DNA of 64,000 nucleotides, taken from assembly GCF_048403405.1 (NCBI RefSeq), contig NZ_CP183129.1; one strand, written 5' to 3'. Under the pieces are notes generated by a model. That model saw only the letters and a list, made by a program, of their open reading frames with translations. It was not told the DNA's origin and did not search any database. Position 1 is the first letter of the stretch. Every line of letters begins with the position of its first letter. Below, piece by piece: positions 842 to 16,138 of the stretch. A program made the position numbers and the translations under genes. This DNA is from Escherichia coli (GTDB lineage Bacteria > Pseudomonadota > Gammaproteobacteria > Enterobacterales > Enterobacteriaceae).

Positions 842-2671
842 CTACTCTTCGTCATCGCCATCAACATGTGCACGAATCAGCGCCATAAACGGTTTGCCAA
901 AGCGTTCCAGCTTGCGCATCCCAACGCCGTTAACGCTGAGCATTTCGCTGGCAGTGATCGGCATCTGTTCCGCCATCTCAATCAAGGTTGCGTCGTTAAA
1001 CACCACGTACGGCGGGACATTGCTTTCATCGGCAATCGATTTACGCAGTTTGCGTAATTTGACGAACAGTTTGCGATCGTAGTTGCCGCCGAAGGATTTC
1101 TGCATCGCTTTCGGTTTGAGCGCCACGATACGTGGCACGGCAAGTTGCAAAGAGGATTCGCCGCGCAGCACCGGACGCGCAGCCTCTGTCAGTTGTAGGG
1201 CAGAATGCTGGGCAATATTTTGCGTCACCAGGCCGAGGTGAATCAGCTGGCGGATCACGCTCACCCAATGTTCATGGCTTTTATCACGGCCCATGCCATA
1301 GACTTTCAGTTTGTCATGACCATAGTCGCGGATACGCTGGTTATTAGCGCCACGAATCACTTCCACCACATAACCCATCCCAAACCGCTGATTCACACGA
1401 CCAATGGAGGAAAGGGCAATCTGAGCATCGGTTGAACCATCGTATTGTTTCGGCGGATCGAGGCAGATATCGCAGTTCCCGCACGGCTCCTGCCGCCCTT
1501 CGCCAAAGTAGTTCAGCAGCACCAGACGACGGCAAGTTTGCGCTTCGGCAAACGCGCCCATCGCATTGAGTTTATGACGTTCGATATCCTGTAACTGCCC
1601 CTGCGGTTTCTCTTCCAGACAACGACGCAGCCACGCCATATCCGCCGGATCGTAAAACAGCATCGCTTCCGCGGGCAGGCCATCACGCCCGGCGCGTCCG
1701 GTTTCCTGATAATAGGATTCAATGTTGCGCGGAATATCAAAATGCACCACGAAGCGAACGTTTGGTTTATTGATGCCCATGCCGAACGCCACCGTCGCCA
1801 CCACAATTTGCAGGTCATCGCGCTGGAATTTCTCCTGCACATCAGCGCGAACATTATTTTCCAGCCCGGCATGATAGGCCGCCGCGCTAATTCCCTTGCT
1901 TTGCAGGCGCGCAGCGGTGTCTTCTACTTTCGCACGACTATTACAGTAAATAATCCCCGACTTACCGCGTTGTTCCTGTACATAACGCATCAACTGATCG
2001 AGCGGTTTGAATTTCTCCATCAGCATGTAGCGAATATTCGGACGGTCAAAACTGCTGATTTGAATCAGCGGATCGTTCAGCCCCAGCAGGCGCACGATAT
2101 CCTGGCGCGTGGTGTCATCGGCTGTGGCAGTCAGCGCCATAAACGGCAGCGTCGGAAAACGCTGACGCAGCTGACCGAGGGCAGCGTATTCCGGGCGGAA
2201 ATCGTGACCCCATTGGGAGATACAGTGCGCTTCATCAACGGCTAATAACACCGGATTCCAGTGCGCCAGATGCTCAAGAAAGTTATCCAGCATCAGACGT
2301 TCCGGCGCGATATAAAGCAGGCGGATTTGCCCGGTGCGACAGCCTGTCATAACTTCAAGTTGCTGCTCGCGGGTTTGCGTCGAGTTAAGGCACGCCGCCG
2401 CCACGCCGTTGGCTTGCAGTTGATCCACCTGATCTTTCATCAACGAAATCAGCGGTGAAACAACCACGGTAAGGCCGTTTAGCAATAAGGCAGGAATTTG
2501 ATAGCAAAGGGATTTTCCGCCACCAGTGGGCATGACGACGAGGCAATCGCGGCCGGAAAGCACAGTGTCGATAATTTCTTCCTGGCCGGGGCGAAACTGT
2601 TGGTAGCCAAAGGTTTCTTGTAAAACCTGTTTAGCTCCGGACTCCAGATTCAACACTTCCGCCTGCGCCAC
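842..2671 (-). CDS. recQ: ATP-dependent DNA helicase RecQ
   Basis: ORF 842..2677; helicase motifs (PTGGGKS, DEAH); likely GTG start two codons in, giving 609 aa ([10 protein letters not shown]...). Confidence 0.93.
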
Positions 2672-2803
2672 ATTCACCCCGATTGCCTGAAATAAAAACA
2701 GGCGCTATTTTCAGCGCCTGCGCGAGAAACTGCAATGCTTTTAGTCTCTGAGAGGGTAATCCTGGATACTGGATTCCAGATTTGCCAACCACTCAACCGT
2801 TCA

Positions 2804-3673
2804 TCAAAACAAGTCGTTTAGCATAACCCCTACACCAACGCGGGTCTGGTTGAAGTTATAGTCGATGAGCGATTCGCCGTAACCGCTGTAAACCTGAGTA
2901 TAAAGGCGCACATGTTTGGTGATCGGGTAACTTAAGCCTAACTCCGCGCCGCCGTAGCCCGTGTTCCAGTTGTACTGTCCTTTCGCACTCAACACCGCAT
3001 CACCGAGGTGATAGCCAATTTTAAGCTGGTAGTAACCCATATATTTGGTGATATCCGGGTTATCGTCAGTATTACCCACCACATACCACGGCTTCACCTC
3101 TACCAGCCAGTTACCGTTTTCTGCCATCAGGCGGGTATAAAGGCGGTTCCAGCTACGGGAGGTCGGGTCTGAACGCCCGTTAGAGTCGTGGTTATACCCC
3201 ATCTCCACATCGCGCAGCGTCCAACCTGCAAAACGGTAATCGGTAGCAAAACCGAGGAACAATTGCGGTTCGTAGTTGGTTTCACGAAACGGTGAAGACT
3301 CTTCGCTATTGGACAGTTGCCACCAGGATTTTTGCGTATAAGACGCACCCAATACCGAGTTCGGGCCTAAAATCCCACGCCACAGCGGAAATGCCAGGCT
3401 CAACTGAAACTTTACTTCATCCTTACGCGCATTTTCCGCCCAGTCGTAACTGGCAATCGCTTCTTTATTCAGATCGCTGGTTTGGGTATAGATGATGTAG
3501 TTGGTGTCATAAGGATAAAGGGTGAACGGATTGTCATGCTCCTGCAGCATATTGGCGATAATACTGCCACGCACCGCTGGCGCGTCATGCACCTCTTTCA
3601 CCGTTGCCTCTTGTGCATATACTGCCATAGGCAACATAAACACCGGCAACAACCAGCCCTGCAGAGTCCGCAT
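2804..3673 (-). CDS. pldA: Outer-membrane phospholipase A (OMPLA)
   Basis: 289-aa ORF with signal peptide MRTLQGWLLPVFMLPMAVYA; matches PldA as recalled. Confidence 0.93.
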   Translation of the reverse strand: MRTLQGWLLPVFMLPMAVYAQEATVKEVHDAPAVRGSIIANMLQEHDNPFTLYPYDTNYIIYTQTSDLNKEAIASYDWAENARKDEVKFQLSLAFPLWRGILGPNSVLGASYTQKSWWQLSNSEESSPFRETNYEPQLFLGFATDYRFAGWTLRDVEMGYNHDSNGRSDPTSRSWNRLYTRLMAENGNWLVEVKPWYVVGNTDDNPDITKYMGYYQLKIGYHLGDAVLSAKGQYNWNTGYGGAELGLSYPITKHVRLYTQVYSGYGESLIDYNFNQTRVGVGVMLNDLF

Positions 3674-4356: not shown

Positions 4357-5247
4357 ATGGATGCAAAACAAACGCGGCAGGGCGTATTACTCGCTCTTGC
4401 CGCTTATTTTATTTGGGGTATTGCGCCAGCGTACTTCAAGCTAATTTACTACGTGCCCGCCGATGAGATCCTGACGCATCGCGTGATCTGGTCGTTTTTC
4501 TTTATGGTGGTGCTGATGAGCATCTGCCGCCAGTGGTCCTATTTAAAAACGCTGATTCAGACGCCACAGAAAATTTTTATGCTGGCAGTCTCTGCCGTGC
4601 TGATTGGTGGCAACTGGCTACTGTTTATCTGGGCGGTGAACAATCACCATATGCTGGAAGCGAGCCTTGGTTACTTTATTAACCCGCTGGTGAACATTGT
4701 GCTAGGGATGATTTTCCTCGGCGAGCGATTCCGCCGGATGCAATGGCTGGCGGTGATTCTGGCGATATGTGGCGTGTTGGTTCAGTTGTGGACTTTTGGT
4801 TCACTACCGATTATCGCGCTGGGGCTGGCGTTTAGTTTTGCCTTCTACGGCCTGGTACGCAAGAAGATTGCTGTTGAAGCGCAAACCGGCATGTTAATCG
4901 AAACTATGTGGTTGCTGCCCGTGGCGGCGATTTACCTGTTTGCTATTGCCGACAGCGCAACCAGCCATATGGGGCAAAACCCGATGTCACTGAATTTACT
5001 GCTGATCGCCGCCGGGATTGTCACTACCGTACCGCTGTTGTGTTTTACTGCGGCTGCGACACGCCTGCGTCTCTCAACGTTAGGCTTTTTTCAGTACATT
5101 GGCCCGACGCTGATGTTCCTGCTGGCTGTGACGTTTTATGGTGAAAAACCGGGTGCCGATAAGATGGTGACCTTCGCCTTTATTTGGGTGGCGCTGGCAA
5201 TTTTTGTGATGGATGCGATTTATACGCAGCGTAGAACGTCCAAATAA
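4357..5247 (+). CDS. rarD: EamA/DMT-family transporter RarD
   Basis: 296-aa polytopic membrane ORF; matches RarD; SD upstream. Confidence 0.92.
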   Translation: MDAKQTRQGVLLALAAYFIWGIAPAYFKLIYYVPADEILTHRVIWSFFFMVVLMSICRQWSYLKTLIQTPQKIFMLAVSAVLIGGNWLLFIWAVNNHHMLEASLGYFINPLVNIVLGMIFLGERFRRMQWLAVILAICGVLVQLWTFGSLPIIALGLAFSFAFYGLVRKKIAVEAQTGMLIETMWLLPVAAIYLFAIADSATSHMGQNPMSLNLLLIAAGIVTTVPLLCFTAAATRLRLSTLGFFQYIGPTLMFLLAVTFYGEKPGADKMVTFAFIWVALAIFVMDAIYTQRRTSK

Positions 5248-5557
5248 AAAATAAATATATTCTGAAAAAATATGCCGACTCTTGCATGAGAGTGGGCATA
5301 TTGCCATGCTGACAGGAGACTCACATAAGGAAAGGCAGAATTTCCAGACGTCGTTGTATATTTTCATTTGCTTTAATAAATTTCATTTTTAGTAAATTCA
5401 GCATTATGTTATTAGCGATGAGCAAGACCAATCATTAACCAAGTTCTCTTCAGAATGTAATGAAAAATGTGAAGTGCATTTCTTTTTTAAAATTTTTTTA
5501 GCCTATTATTTCTTATCAAATTAACATTGCCCTTAATTATAAGAAAGGAGAATATAA

Positions 5558-6406
5558 ATGAACAACATATTAGGCTCATCAATTAATATGCCCTGTACAC
5601 TTTTCGAAACTATTACTTTATTCGATGATTTTTCTGCTGATGATATGCAATATGGGGATATGGAAGAACAAGATTTTCTCTCACTCGGCTTAAGCGACAT
5701 CTCTGCAAAAGTTGATCCTTACCGCCTCATTAAATACCATTTTCCTGGGCCGAATTCTACTTATGGTGCTTTTAGTGTTCCAACTTCTGGAACAAAAATA
5801 TCACAAAGTGAATGTATTGATATTTTATTTGCAGAAATGAAAGATCTGGCAAAAATGTTTTCCTTTTTTGGACAATACAAAACACTCATCCAGGATCTGA
5901 TTGATCATTTTAGATATGGAAATGGCAACAGTTTCCATAGCCAGGAATTGAACTTATCTTTTCATGAACGAATAAAAAAATATGATTATAATAGCCCAAT
6001 ACGTGTAATCAAAGAATGTATCGAAAATGATATTTCTTCAACACCTACGATAGGATACCGGCCTCTTCTCCTACAAAAGATTAAGATCGAATTACTTTCA
6101 TCAAGACTAAATAAATTCAATGATTTTAAAGATAATTTTAATGGCCTGGGAATCAGCATTCATGATATCTCAGCTCAAAAAATATCTCTTTTAAGTTTTC
6201 AAAAATACGCTATAGGATGGAGTGCAACAATTCATTTTGTAGCACAGGACCACTTCGGTCTTGATGTAACTGATATCAAAAACAAGACTTACAGCAAATA
6301 TAGATTTTTTCGCATATGGTTCTTTTTACAACGGCATAAAGACTTTGCTTTCAAACCTTTTTTCACCAATTTTAACACTATCGAAAGAATCGAAAATTAT
6401 CTATGA
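5558..6406 (+). CDS. Hypothetical protein, 282 aa, AT-rich accessory gene (islet gene 1); no recognisable family
   Basis: Intact ORF with AAGGAG SD 8 nt upstream of ATG; very low GC relative to flanks; no TM or signal peptide evident; stop overlaps start of next ORF. Confidence 0.7.
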   Translation: MNNILGSSINMPCTLFETITLFDDFSADDMQYGDMEEQDFLSLGLSDISAKVDPYRLIKYHFPGPNSTYGAFSVPTSGTKISQSECIDILFAEMKDLAKMFSFFGQYKTLIQDLIDHFRYGNGNSFHSQELNLSFHERIKKYDYNSPIRVIKECIENDISSTPTIGYRPLLLQKIKIELLSSRLNKFNDFKDNFNGLGISIHDISAQKISLLSFQKYAIGWSATIHFVAQDHFGLDVTDIKNKTYSKYRFFRIWFFLQRHKDFAFKPFFTNFNTIERIENYL

Positions 6407-6894
6407 AAAACAAACTCCAGAAAATTATATTATGTTTATTTCTTCTATGCTGCATCTATAATTTATGGACATTGCGTCCTGTACAGATTTTGTATACATA
6501 CTCTGATGCTGGCAATTCAGTCTTTCTGGTCGTTGATCATCTGCCATGGACTGACAGCGATAAAATAAATTGGTATCTGAAGCATCAGAATGAAATTAAA
6601 AATCAACATCCCCTACCAGAAGGTAGTTGGCATACCTGGTATGTCATTGATATCGGTAATGGCTTCACTGACTATAAAAAATATATCGAAGGGCCGTATG
6701 AAGATCTCTACTGTTTCCCGACAATTAAGAGCAATGATAATTGCATCGTGAAAAATTACTTAATGGTTATTAATGAATACCCTTATCGTAACACTCATAT
6801 TGGTATTAACGATTTTACTGAGTATCAATTAACACAAGAAAATAAAATAGAGCGAGTTTTCAATCCGCATGACTTTAAAAAAGACAATTTTTAG
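6403..6894 (+). CDS. Hypothetical protein, 163 aa, N-terminal hydrophobic anchor or signal (islet gene 2)
   Basis: ATG overlaps upstream stop (ATGA at 6403-6406); N-terminus MKNKLQKIILCLFLLCCIYNLW is hydrophobic; AT-rich; followed by hairpin 6900-6930. Confidence 0.7.
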   Translation: MKNKLQKIILCLFLLCCIYNLWTLRPVQILYTYSDAGNSVFLVVDHLPWTDSDKINWYLKHQNEIKNQHPLPEGSWHTWYVIDIGNGFTDYKKYIEGPYEDLYCFPTIKSNDNCIVKNYLMVINEYPYRNTHIGINDFTEYQLTQENKIERVFNPHDFKKDNF

Positions 6895-6899
6895 AAATA

Positions 6900-6930
6900 A
6901 GCCGGATAAAAAAATAGCTTTATCCGGCAC
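6900..6930. terminator. Bidirectional intrinsic terminator hairpin between islet gene 2 and corA
   Basis: GCCGGATAAAAAAATAGCTTTATCCGGC inverted repeat between convergent ORFs. Confidence 0.55.
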
Positions 6931-6935
6931 TCATA

Positions 6936-7886
6936 TTACAACCAGTTCTTCCGCTTAAAATACAGATACGGTGCCAGGCCCGCGAGGATCATAAAGATAA
7001 TCGCGCCAGGGTAGCCGAAACTCCACTTCAGTTCCGGCATAAACTCAAAGTTCATCCCGTAGCTGGAAGCAACCAGCGTTGGCGGCAGGAACACGACGGA
7101 TACCACCGAGAAGATTTTGATGATGCGGTTCTGCTCGATGTTGATAAAGCCCATCGCCGCCTGCATCAGGAAGTTCACCTTCTGGAACAGGGATTCGTTA
7201 TGCGGCAGCAGGGATTCGATATCTCGCAGGATTTCACGCGCCTGCTCCAGTTGACCACCCGGTAAACGCGCCTTGCGTACCAGGAAGTTGAGCGCACGCT
7301 GGGTATCCATCAGACACAGGCGAACTTTCCAGCCGATATCTTCCAGTTCCGCCAGCGTGGAGAGCGCCTCGTCGTACTCATCGCCCTGATGCCCTTCCAT
7401 AATTACCCGGCTCAACTGCTCCAGGTCGCTGTAGATATTTTCAATTTCATCTGCCAACTGTTCGATTTTGGTTTCGAACAGATCCAGCAGCAGCTCGTAG
7501 GCATTACCGTCTACCATCGACTGGCTACGGGCACGCATACGATATAGACGAAAAGCGGGCAGTTCACGCTCACGCAGAGTAAACAGACGACCATCACGGA
7601 TGGTAAATGCCACAGTGGAGTTACCGGCGTGATCTTCCGCATCTTCAAAGAAGAAGAAGGAGTGAATATGCAGGCCGTCATCGTCTTCAAAGAAACGTGC
7701 CGATGCTTCGATGTCTTCCAGTTCCGGGCGGGTTGCCAGGCTCTGGCCAAGTTCAGATTGTACGCGCAGTCGCTCGTCGTCGTCCGGTTCGACAAGATCA
7801 ATCCATACTGCATTTACAAGGGGTTGTGACTCTTCGACTTCCAGCCGGGTCAGTCGGTTATTTTCCAGTTGAAATGCGCTCAGCAT
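6936..7886 (-). CDS. corA: Magnesium/cobalt transport protein CorA
   Basis: ORF 6936..7901; start at [10 protein letters not shown] (316 aa); C-terminal [10 protein letters not shown] motif present. Confidence 0.93.
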
Positions 7887-8010
7887 GACCGGGACTCCCA
7901 ATGCTTAAAATATCGGACAGTTCGGTGGGCACACAGAAACAAATTGGGTTTCAGACCATTAAACAGCCTGACTCAGCGCGACGGGAAAAATTGAGGTCGC
8001 TGACAACCGC

Positions 8011-9102: not shown

Positions 9103-10005
9103 ATGAAAAAAACGCTCGCAACGTTATTTTTATTAACGTGTCTGGGATCATCATCCGCCTATGCAGATAACGCTTTGATTTTACAAACTGATTTTAGCCT
9201 GAAAGATGGTGCCGTCTCGGCGATGAAAGGGGTCGCATTCGGCGTTGACCATAATCTTAAAATCTTTGATTTAACACACGAAATTCCACCGTATAACATC
9301 TGGGAAGGCGCTTATCGCCTGTATCAGACTGCCAGTTACTGGCCGCAAGGTTCGGTGTTTGTTAGCGTGGTCGATCCGGGCGTAGGCACTGACCGTAAAT
9401 CGGTGGTGCTAAAAACCAAAAACGGTCAGTACTTCGTTTCACCAGATAACGGTACGCTCACTTTGGTGGCACAAACTCTGGGTATTGATAGCGTCCGGGA
9501 AATCGACGAAAAAGCTAACCGCCTGAAAGGTTCTGAAAAGTCATATACCTTCCACGGTCGTGACGTGTATGCCTACACCGGTGCGCGTCTGGCTTCCGGG
9601 GCGATTACGTTCGAACAGGTGGGGCCAGAGCTTCCTGCAAAAGTTGTCGAACTTTCTTATCAGAAAGCAAAAGCAACAAAAGGTGAAGTGAAGGGCAATA
9701 TCCCGATTCTCGATATTCAGTACGGCAACGTCTGGAGCAATATCAGCGACGAGTTGCTGAATCAGGCAGGAATCAAACTCAACGACACGTTGTGTGTGAC
9801 CATTTCCGAAGGTTCCCAGCAAAAATACGCAGGGAAAATGCCGTATGTCGCAAGCTTCGGCGATGTGCCGGAAGGCCAGCCGATGGTGTATCTGAACAGC
9901 TTATTGAATGTTTCCGTGGCGCTGAATATGGATAATTTTGCGCAGAAACATCAGGTTGCGTCTGGTGCTGACTGGAATATTGATGTGAAGAAGTGCGCTA
10001 AGTAA
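9103..10005 (+). CDS. SAM hydroxide adenosyltransferase (DUF62/fluorinase-chlorinase family)-like protein with N-terminal signal peptide
   Basis: 300-aa ORF; signal peptide MKKTLATLFLLTCLGSSSAYA; family-like motifs LQTDFSLKDGAVSAMKGV, VVDPGVGTDR, FVSPDNGTLT, TFHGRDVYAYTGARLASG. Confidence 0.75.
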   Translation: MKKTLATLFLLTCLGSSSAYADNALILQTDFSLKDGAVSAMKGVAFGVDHNLKIFDLTHEIPPYNIWEGAYRLYQTASYWPQGSVFVSVVDPGVGTDRKSVVLKTKNGQYFVSPDNGTLTLVAQTLGIDSVREIDEKANRLKGSEKSYTFHGRDVYAYTGARLASGAITFEQVGPELPAKVVELSYQKAKATKGEVKGNIPILDIQYGNVWSNISDELLNQAGIKLNDTLCVTISEGSQQKYAGKMPYVASFGDVPEGQPMVYLNSLLNVSVALNMDNFAQKHQVASGADWNIDVKKCAK

Positions 10006-15673: not shown

Positions 15674-16138
15674 TATGGATTGCCTGTAAAGTTCATCGCT
15701 TTCTGCTTTCTATCATCGCAGGAGAAGGCGTAAAAGCAAGCGTTTAGCGACTCTTTATGAAGTCTGAAAAGTGAGGAAATGCTGCGAGTATAACGCTTAC
15801 TCGTGGCGATTTATGTTTTGCTGGTAGTTTCGTGATCGGCACCTCGCGCCAGGATGGCTTTATGCACTATCGCAATGTGGTTTGTTTGTTGGCTTGTTCG
15901 TTGTTTTTATCGTCGGCATGGGGATGTCGGCTTGATGAGCGGAACATAATATTTACCAGAAACAGGGAAAAGGCGTGGTGTATTTGCGCCCTTATGAAAA
16001 GACCAATCTTTCGCTATATAGAGACATTATTATTCCGTTGACGGATGAATCATGCCAGAACGCAGCAGACGAGCAAACTTTGAAGCCCTGACCCCATGCC
16101 GCTATACTGCCGCCATCACTTAAAAACAGGATACAACA

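Follow-up and report, generated by a model that had tools for sequence, protein, structure and literature searches.

A probable orphan DUF3289/DUF943 effector-immunity pair in an AT-rich islet between rarD and corA of Escherichia coli

What occupies the interval between rarD and corA in this Escherichia coli chromosome, and what might it do? The window analyzed here, 64,000 nt of contig NZ_CP183129.1, carries at positions 5248 to 6935 a conspicuously AT-rich islet of two genes. A first-pass annotation, made from the sequence alone, had read this islet as a horizontally acquired toxin-immunity or defense module of no recognizable family. Our analysis suggests that it most probably encodes an orphan antibacterial effector-immunity pair: a cell-wall toxin of the DUF3289 family, delivered by a type VI secretion system (T6SS), and a periplasmic DUF943 protein that neutralizes it. 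The pair sits at a fixed site in about half of complete E. coli genomes, yet its public annotation consists of placeholder names. It adds a widespread candidate for interbacterial competition to the E. coli repertoire and accounts for an AT-rich presence/absence polymorphism adjoining corA.

The two-gene block was confirmed to lie between rarD (4357..5247, + strand) and corA (6936..7886, − strand; extended in the open reading frame (ORF) list to an upstream TTG at 7901), with a hairpin at either end. A Shine-Dalgarno sequence (SD; AAGGAG, 5545-5550) precedes the ATG of the first gene by 7 nt. The stop of this gene overlaps the start of the second within ATGA at 6403-6406, and the two genes are predicted to be translationally coupled. 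The spacer (5248-5557), gene 1 and gene 2 have G+C contents of 0.297, 0.327 and 0.333, respectively, compared with 0.507 in rarD, 0.527 in corA and 0.519 in the entire window; at third codon positions the values are 0.27 and 0.34 for the two genes versus 0.62 for corA. The hairpin after rarD has a folding energy of −20.0 kcal/mol (shuffled sequences, −9.0, sd 2.7), and that beside corA −15.5 kcal/mol (−2.9, sd 1.8). In each of these features, from the ORF coordinates to both hairpins, the first-pass annotation had read the sequence correctly. A promoter scan of the islet gave scores no better than those of shuffled sequence, and we claim no promoter.

Both products belong to named families, contrary to the earlier view that neither could be recognized. 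The gene 1 product matched TIGR03034 ("YPO3983 family") along the whole profile (positions 1-274 of 274) with 399.6 bits against a curated cutoff of 156.45 (E = 7e-120), and PF11692 (DUF3289) over positions 2-270 of 272 (E = 3.5e-82). The gene 2 product matched PF06092 (DUF943) over positions 1-150 of 151 (E = 2.1e-26). RefSeq already labels both E. coli proteins with these families, and experiments on homologues have been published. These matches and homologues bear out the proposal of a toxin-immunity module in which a soluble toxin is coupled to a smaller, membrane-anchored partner. The hydropathy profiles are likewise as first described: the 19-residue Kyte-Doolittle mean of gene 1 peaks at 1.17, with no hydrophobic segment, versus 1.79 for residues 6-27 of gene 2, where the predicted model places a helix at residues 2-23.

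To place the toxin within its family, we searched 1.84 billion representative proteins and found 472 relatives. These fall into stand-alone proteins of ~280 aa, a class of 400-450 aa, and long fusions (500-1300 aa) in which only residues 85-280 are matched. Among 28 fusions, nine carry PAAR, two Hcp/TssD and one DUF4280, domains that are hallmarks of specialized T6SS effectors; others carry Peptidase_M23, PG_binding_1, LysM, SH3_3/SH3b, Peptidase_M14 or glycoside-hydrolase-like domains. The PAAR fusions retain the full ~280-aa module, residues 8-85 included. Fusion to PAAR, Hcp and cell-wall domains thus supports T6SS delivery and a cell-wall target for the family.

Conserved positions within the DUF3289 alignment indicated where a catalytic site might lie. 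Invariant residues were D29, F91, H232, F233, G234, D239, W254, L257, Q258 and P267; near-invariant were H202, D203, Q230, D231, L235 and D236. Across 52 sequences, the QDHFGLDxxD motif has H232, F233, G234 and D239 invariant, and Q230, D231, L235 and D236 conserved in at least 90%. The motif is also kept in the 28 multidomain fusions and in BtpeA, a family member of solved structure. The window toxin carries both QDHFGLDxxD (residues 230-239) and W..LQ (254-258), and the QDHFGLDxxD cluster is a likely candidate for the active site of the DUF3289 toxin. An RLIKYH hexapeptide, which the first-pass annotation had rightly dismissed as too weak for a HEPN call, was dropped, gene 1 being a full-length DUF3289 gene with a different conserved motif.

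An AlphaFold2 model of the toxin, built with 52 diverse homologues, was confident (pLDDT 86.4, pTM 0.83) and shares its fold with BtpeA, the best structural match. The next-ranked matches were four colicin M-like bacteriocins. Residues 17-22 (ETITLF), considered by eye as a possible colicin M-like TonB box, were set aside: the strand is confidently packed in the model and is kept in the PAAR fusions.

The immunity protein showed the corresponding signatures of a periplasmic partner. Residues P48, W57, C104 and C114 are invariant across 132 DUF943 sequences, and 120 of these have exactly two cysteines past residue 30, a pattern that fits a disulfide-bonded domain in the periplasm, the predicted location. 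The protein consists of an N-terminal transmembrane (TM) helix and an alpha/beta domain whose fold matches BtpiA, the immunity half of the BtpeA-BtpiA complex from Bacteroides fragilis (PDB 9jdi, 9jg8 and 9jg9). The PDB entry names the DUF3289 chain as effector and the DUF943-like chain as immunity protein. Judged from the predicted models, the toxin and the immunity protein of the islet each have their counterpart in a single solved T6SS effector-immunity complex.

The present analysis established the family membership, the fold matches, the co-conservation of the two genes, purifying selection and the history of the locus; toxicity in the periplasm, neutralization by DUF943 and delivery that depends on a T6SS are known from published work on homologues. 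For the E. coli pair we infer activity and T6SS delivery, and also a possible substrate. The toxin, which has no export signal in its sequence, would be made in the cytoplasm and is expected to be harmless there. It would then be injected into the periplasm of neighboring Gram-negative cells, most probably by a T6SS encoded elsewhere in the genome. In the target periplasm it may damage cell-wall synthesis or integrity and cause cell rounding, with QDHFGLDxxD...W..LQ in the C-terminal beta-sheet domain as the likely catalytic site. Its chemistry might be colicin M-like cleavage of a lipid-linked peptidoglycan precursor, a proposal already published for the family. DUF943 would place one N-terminal helix in the inner membrane and its disulfide-bonded domain in the periplasm, where it may bind and block toxin arriving from sister cells.

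Is the pair kept together, and is it maintained? Our locus survey took one genome per species, found 381 relatives and kept 73 loci, nearly all from Enterobacterales; several surveyed genomes held more than one DUF3289 locus. A same-strand DUF943 ORF, mostly overlapping, follows 103 of the 105 full-length DUF3289 ORFs in these loci, and the two DUF3289 ORFs without one lie at contig or locus ends. DUF943 ORFs are in excess (160 versus 105 full-length toxins), intact immunity genes are often found behind toxin fragments, and tandem arrays are common too, with six full toxins in one Rosenbergiella locus (L030). Arrays with additional immunity genes are typical of polymorphic toxin-immunity loci. 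Neighborhoods of the related loci are mixed, with housekeeping or mobile DNA. With the Salmonella orthologues as reference, the toxin gene has a dN/dS of 0.135 and the immunity gene one of 0.152; values for the toxin range from 0.11 to 0.23 and indicate purifying selection. By this measure neither gene is decaying. Co-conservation and selection, whose absence the first-pass annotation had named among possible refuting observations, both speak for the effector-immunity reading.

The survey also turned up several arrangements worth recording. Long tandem arrays of DUF3289-DUF943 pairs occur in L030 (Rosenbergiella gaditana), L025 and L042 (both Tatumella), L037 and L063: each 16-kb locus has between four and six full toxins, with toxin fragments that precede intact immunity genes scattered among them. 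Kosakonia oryziphila has up to seven separate DUF3289-DUF943 loci in a single genome. On one Enterobacter contig (L006, 4499-5829), a shorter DUF3289 ORF of 225 aa and a more divergent DUF943 stand directly upstream of a full pair, at a site between fadH-like and lsrK-like genes. In four species (L048, L051, L052 and L075) a P4-family primase gene lies within a few kb of the pair, a hint that the pair travels on satellite or integrative elements in some lineages. One JGI metagenome protein (P0138, 216 aa) combines DUF943 and CorA Pfam domains in a single predicted protein, although the corresponding genes of E. coli are convergent, and is probably an artifact of gene calling or assembly.

Several observations weigh against assigning the pair to a T6SS. 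No PAAR or Hcp gene lay within 8 kb in any of the 73 related loci when searched with PAAR and Hcp seeds, no VgrG was seen among the sampled large neighboring ORFs (NCBIfam; part of the neighbors annotated), and the 64-kb window, core chromosome from rhtB to an rRNA operon, holds no T6SS gene. No adaptor is encoded beside the toxin gene, and 282 aa is large for cargo of the Hcp lumen. The T6SS link therefore rests on the fusions and on experiments with homologues. Orphan T6SS effectors are an accepted class, and missing linkage is compatible with T6SS function. The literature itself contributes two contrary points: the immunity protein of an Aeromonas effector is not a DUF943 protein (PMC12135965), and the group behind the toxin-immunity assignment had first reported the opposite roles, in a preprint of 2021.

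The lack of a linked T6SS gene in the window or the 73 related loci would also suit a bacteriocin-like toxin that is released by lysis, vesicles or leakage and enters cells by itself, as colicin M does via FhuA and TonB, with DUF943 as the counterpart of Cmi. The topology of Cmi resembles that of DUF943, with an N-terminal anchor and a periplasmic domain. The four colicin M-like bacteriocins ranking directly behind BtpeA agree with this explanation, as do residues 1-85, which lie outside the minimal domain of the long fusions. We nevertheless consider it quite unlikely. The unit fused to PAAR is the full 280-aa module, and since this includes residues 8-85, the N-terminus is part of the domain rather than an uptake module. 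In the model the N-terminal strand is packed with confidence; moreover, there is no lysis gene, and a stand-alone orphan homologue is T6SS-dependent (PMC12135965). The excess of DUF943 ORFs and the intact immunity genes behind toxin fragments raise another explanation, namely that the locus is kept mainly for immunity against the DUF3289 toxins of competitors, the toxin gene being carried along or little used in E. coli. The immunity gene and the C-terminal third of the toxin gene are indeed near-identical across lineages with differing flanks. However, the toxin ORF is intact here and annotated as intact in every sampled genome, its conserved motif is undamaged, and it is under the purifying selection described above, which makes this explanation very unlikely.

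A small, AT-rich, coupled two-gene cassette at a variable site could also be an anti-phage or abortive-infection system, as the first-pass annotation had entertained, or a classical intracellular toxin-antitoxin addiction pair, and some related loci have mobile or defense-like genes nearby, namely a P4-type primase and a helicase with weak matches to anti-phage models. Neither protein, however, matched any PADLOC model at E values up to 1 or any PHROGs family. One homologue shows toxicity once targeted to the periplasm, and a different homologue is reported as non-toxic in its cytoplasmic form; since the window toxin has no export signal, the producer would not kill itself, and self-killing upon infection is implausible. 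The partner is membrane-anchored with a conserved cysteine pair and is no labile cytoplasmic antitoxin of type II systems. We therefore regard a defense or addiction role as extremely improbable. The same low probability applies to the reversed roles of 2021, in which DUF3289 would be a T6SS adaptor or chaperone and DUF943 the toxic effector. That preprint found overexpressed Aeromonas DUF943 toxic to E. coli and cytoplasmic DUF3289 non-toxic, but the group itself turned the assignment around once the protein was targeted to the periplasm (PMC11148199). The effector and immunity names in the PDB entry also oppose reversed roles, and DUF3289 has an enzyme-like invariant polar motif and occupies the C-terminal toxin position in PAAR and Hcp fusions. 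Overexpression of membrane proteins is often toxic for unrelated reasons, which further counts against the reversal. A T6SS-delivered DUF3289 toxin with a DUF943 immunity protein remains the reading that we prefer.

How did the pair come to lie between rarD and corA? Among 5426 complete E. coli genomes, 2626 (O157:H7 included) carry the islet at a minimum of 80% coverage, and yigG-yigF is present in 2408. Horizontal acquisition at a variable site, as proposed in the first-pass annotation, is supported; its view that the islet replaced yigF and yigG is not. Some genomes hold both (roughly 2 of 40 evenly spaced matches, a rough estimate), and in one of them (L001) the order is rarD, yigG, yigF, a 147-bp pseudogene fragment of the corA 3' end, DUF3289, DUF943 and corA. 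Such fragments (L001 3910-4056; L003, from O157:H7, 2337-2483) precede the toxin gene by ~187 nt; they duplicate the end of corA in direct orientation and are 92-95% identical to functional corA 3' ends. This duplicate indicates that the cassette went in next to, or within, the 3' end of corA and that a duplication accompanied the event. No integrase was found at the islet.

Alignment by blastn placed window positions 4357-5390 on 2110-3181 of the K-12 locus (L002) and window positions from 5392 onward on L001 from 4074 onward. A deletion junction at 5390/5392 joins the yigG remnant to the cassette leader, and only the first 84 nt of the islet block match islet-free genomes. The arrangement seen here derives from the state with both modules: a later deletion of ~0.9 kb took out the whole of yigF, the greater part of yigG and the corA fragment. 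This junction was found in 930 genomes. In O157:H7 the corA fragment is kept and yigG-yigF is replaced by other DNA. The pair occupies the same rarD-corA position in non-enterica subspecies of Salmonella, and Enterobacter has two tandem pairs at a different site. Coordinates of the islet and adjoining features are collected in Table 1.

Two further observations concern this interval. The replacement DNA in O157:H7 (L003 1365-2336), ~970 nt of unrelated sequence with a hypothetical ORF of 99 aa on the opposite strand (WP_000526425.1), constitutes a fourth state of the rarD-corA interval. In all five top-listed yigG-yigF genomes (H61-H65) an IS1 element lies inside the yigG-yigF region, and the interval is thus also a target of insertion sequences.

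Table 1. Features of the rarD-corA interval in the window (gene coordinates from the ORF list)
Feature	Position	Strand	Basis or remark
rarD-yigG intergenic spacer, common with K-12	5248..5330	+	near base-for-base alignment to K-12 (L002 3001-3083); core DNA, outside the acquired cassette
Stable hairpin after rarD	5269..5302	.	stem of 13-14 bp with one mismatch; no T-tract on + strand, T-run 3' on − strand
yigG internal remnant, ~codons 10-29	5331..5390	+	pairwise alignment with K-12; start codon lost by a 38-nt deletion
Cassette leader, AT-rich, with SD	5392..5557	+	84.7% identity to the equivalent region of L001/L003
Toxin gene (gene 1): stand-alone DUF3289/YPO3983-family, 282 aa	5558..6406	+	no signal peptide, no TM segment
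Putative recombination breakpoint within toxin gene, ~codon 204	6160..6180	+	sliding-window mismatches versus L001 and L003
QDHFGLDVTD, codons 230-239: candidate active site	6245..6274	+	polar motif conserved family-wide
Immunity gene (gene 2): DUF943, 163 aa	6403..6894	+	TM anchor, residues ~6-27, at nt 6418-6483; C104 at nt 6712-6714, C114 at nt 6742-6744
Hairpin between converging immunity gene and corA	6901..6928	.	terminator scan: terminator-like on − strand, T-rich tail 3'
Final 147 nt of corA	6936..7082	−	many other E. coli genomes have a second, decayed copy 5' of the toxin gene, a footprint of the insertion

Comparison of alleles revealed that the toxin gene itself is a mosaic. Relative to other E. 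coli alleles, the window toxin gene is 86% identical (dS 0.30), whereas the immunity gene is 99.4% identical (dS about 0). Against L001 and L003, mismatches per 60 nt usually number 6-13 over positions 5392-6168 and 0-2 over 6169-6948, the latter fewer than in parts of neighboring corA. The ~13-15% divergence of the leader and the 5' two-thirds of the toxin gene, which exist as deeply diverged alleles, thus stops abruptly near 6170, at codon 204. We attribute the mosaic to a recombination event. The C-terminal third of the toxin gene, together with the immunity gene, is near-identical across E. coli lineages whose flanking genes differ, which could reflect recent spread of this unit by recombination. 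A bolder, and on balance unlikely, interpretation is that the stand-alone enterobacterial toxins are modular: the first ~200 residues would serve for delivery or targeting and be exchangeable, and the last ~80, with the immunity gene, would form a fixed unit of catalysis and neutralization. If N-terminal alleles did specify different T6SS carriers, or a T6SS-independent route, the locus would be a naturally occurring setting in which to study the pairing of orphan effectors with their delivery machines.

The window contains other genes of note. A 300-aa gene of the SAM hydrolase/SAM-dependent halogenase family (DUF62-type; 9103-10005, + strand) lies between yigE and uvrD, a few kb from the islet, and is a second variable gene: it also follows yigE in O157:H7 and is absent in strain 2021CK-01361, where uvrD comes directly after yigE. 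Between ppiC and rep, an ORF at 49636-50127 (+ strand) is annotated in a near-identical genome as a type II toxin-antitoxin toxin of the PemK/MazF family, with no antitoxin annotated beside it. A frameshifted, truncated "DKNYY family protein" pseudogene lies by cyaY at about 15860-16020, approximate coordinates mapped from a near-identical genome.

How does the pair compare with systems already described? In the literature found, no report names the E. coli proteins of the rarD-corA islet by accession, while several describe their relatives. The toxic C-termini recorded for orphan PIX-class T6SS effectors include DUF3289, which also occurs in T6SS-associated gene clusters of Klebsiella and Enterobacter. 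The pair T6EC1/T6IC1 of Yersinia pseudotuberculosis IP32881 has these two Pfam families arranged as in the islet. T6EC1, a PAAR-DUF3289 protein of a T6SS operon, is toxic in the E. coli periplasm, where it causes rounding, and the adjacent DUF943 protein neutralizes it (Geller et al. 2024, PMC11148199). T6IC1 (157 aa versus 163 aa in the window) has the same layout, with a TM segment at residues 7-26 and the remainder periplasmic. Its authors state that T6SS-dependent secretion of T6EC1 was not shown (PMC11148199). The window toxin differs in being a stand-alone module with no T6SS gene within 64 kb, whereas T6EC1 is fused to PAAR inside a T6SS operon.

Another relative is the DUF3289 protein of Aeromonas jandaei DSM 7311 (WP_042032936.1), which is encoded outside the main T6SS cluster and is termed an orphan. 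It was found in the T6SS-dependent secretome in a 2025 PLoS Biology study, and kills sister cells lacking the pair in a T6SS-dependent manner, the downstream gene restoring protection (PMC12135965). Its immunity protein differs from DUF943 in the window, having 95 aa with a signal peptide and three TM helices.

The structural counterpart is the BtpeA-BtpiA complex (Li et al. 2025, Cell Host Microbe). BtpeA is 608 aa long, with an extended N-terminal region that works with an adaptor in the Bacteroidota T6SS, compared with 282 aa for the window toxin; T6SS delivery is implied for this B. fragilis homologue. Identity is ~20-22% for the toxins and 11% for the immunity proteins, and BtpiA is not detectable as DUF943 by sequence.

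Resemblance to colicin M is weaker. The Foldseek match of DUF3289 to PaeM (4G76) led to its proposal as a colicin M homologue (PMC11148199). For the window toxin, Pfam reported DUF3289 only, a PDB-sequence profile search at E values up to 10 returned no colicin M-like chain, and the TM-score to the colicin M-like bacteriocins (colicin M, PaeM, syringacin M and pectocin M1, all lipid II phosphoesterases) was about 0.29. Unlike these, the window toxin has no evident receptor-binding or TonB-dependent uptake domain. The colicin M motif is DxYDx5HR, and the conserved motif of the window toxin is QDHFGLDxxD. No lipid II cleavage by a DUF3289 protein is reported in the literature found. Altogether, the islet represents no new kind of system, as its family, its toxin-immunity logic, T6SS delivery of homologues and the crystal structure of a complex between homologues were already published or deposited; its new details, the locus history and the mosaic within the toxin gene, are of modest interest.

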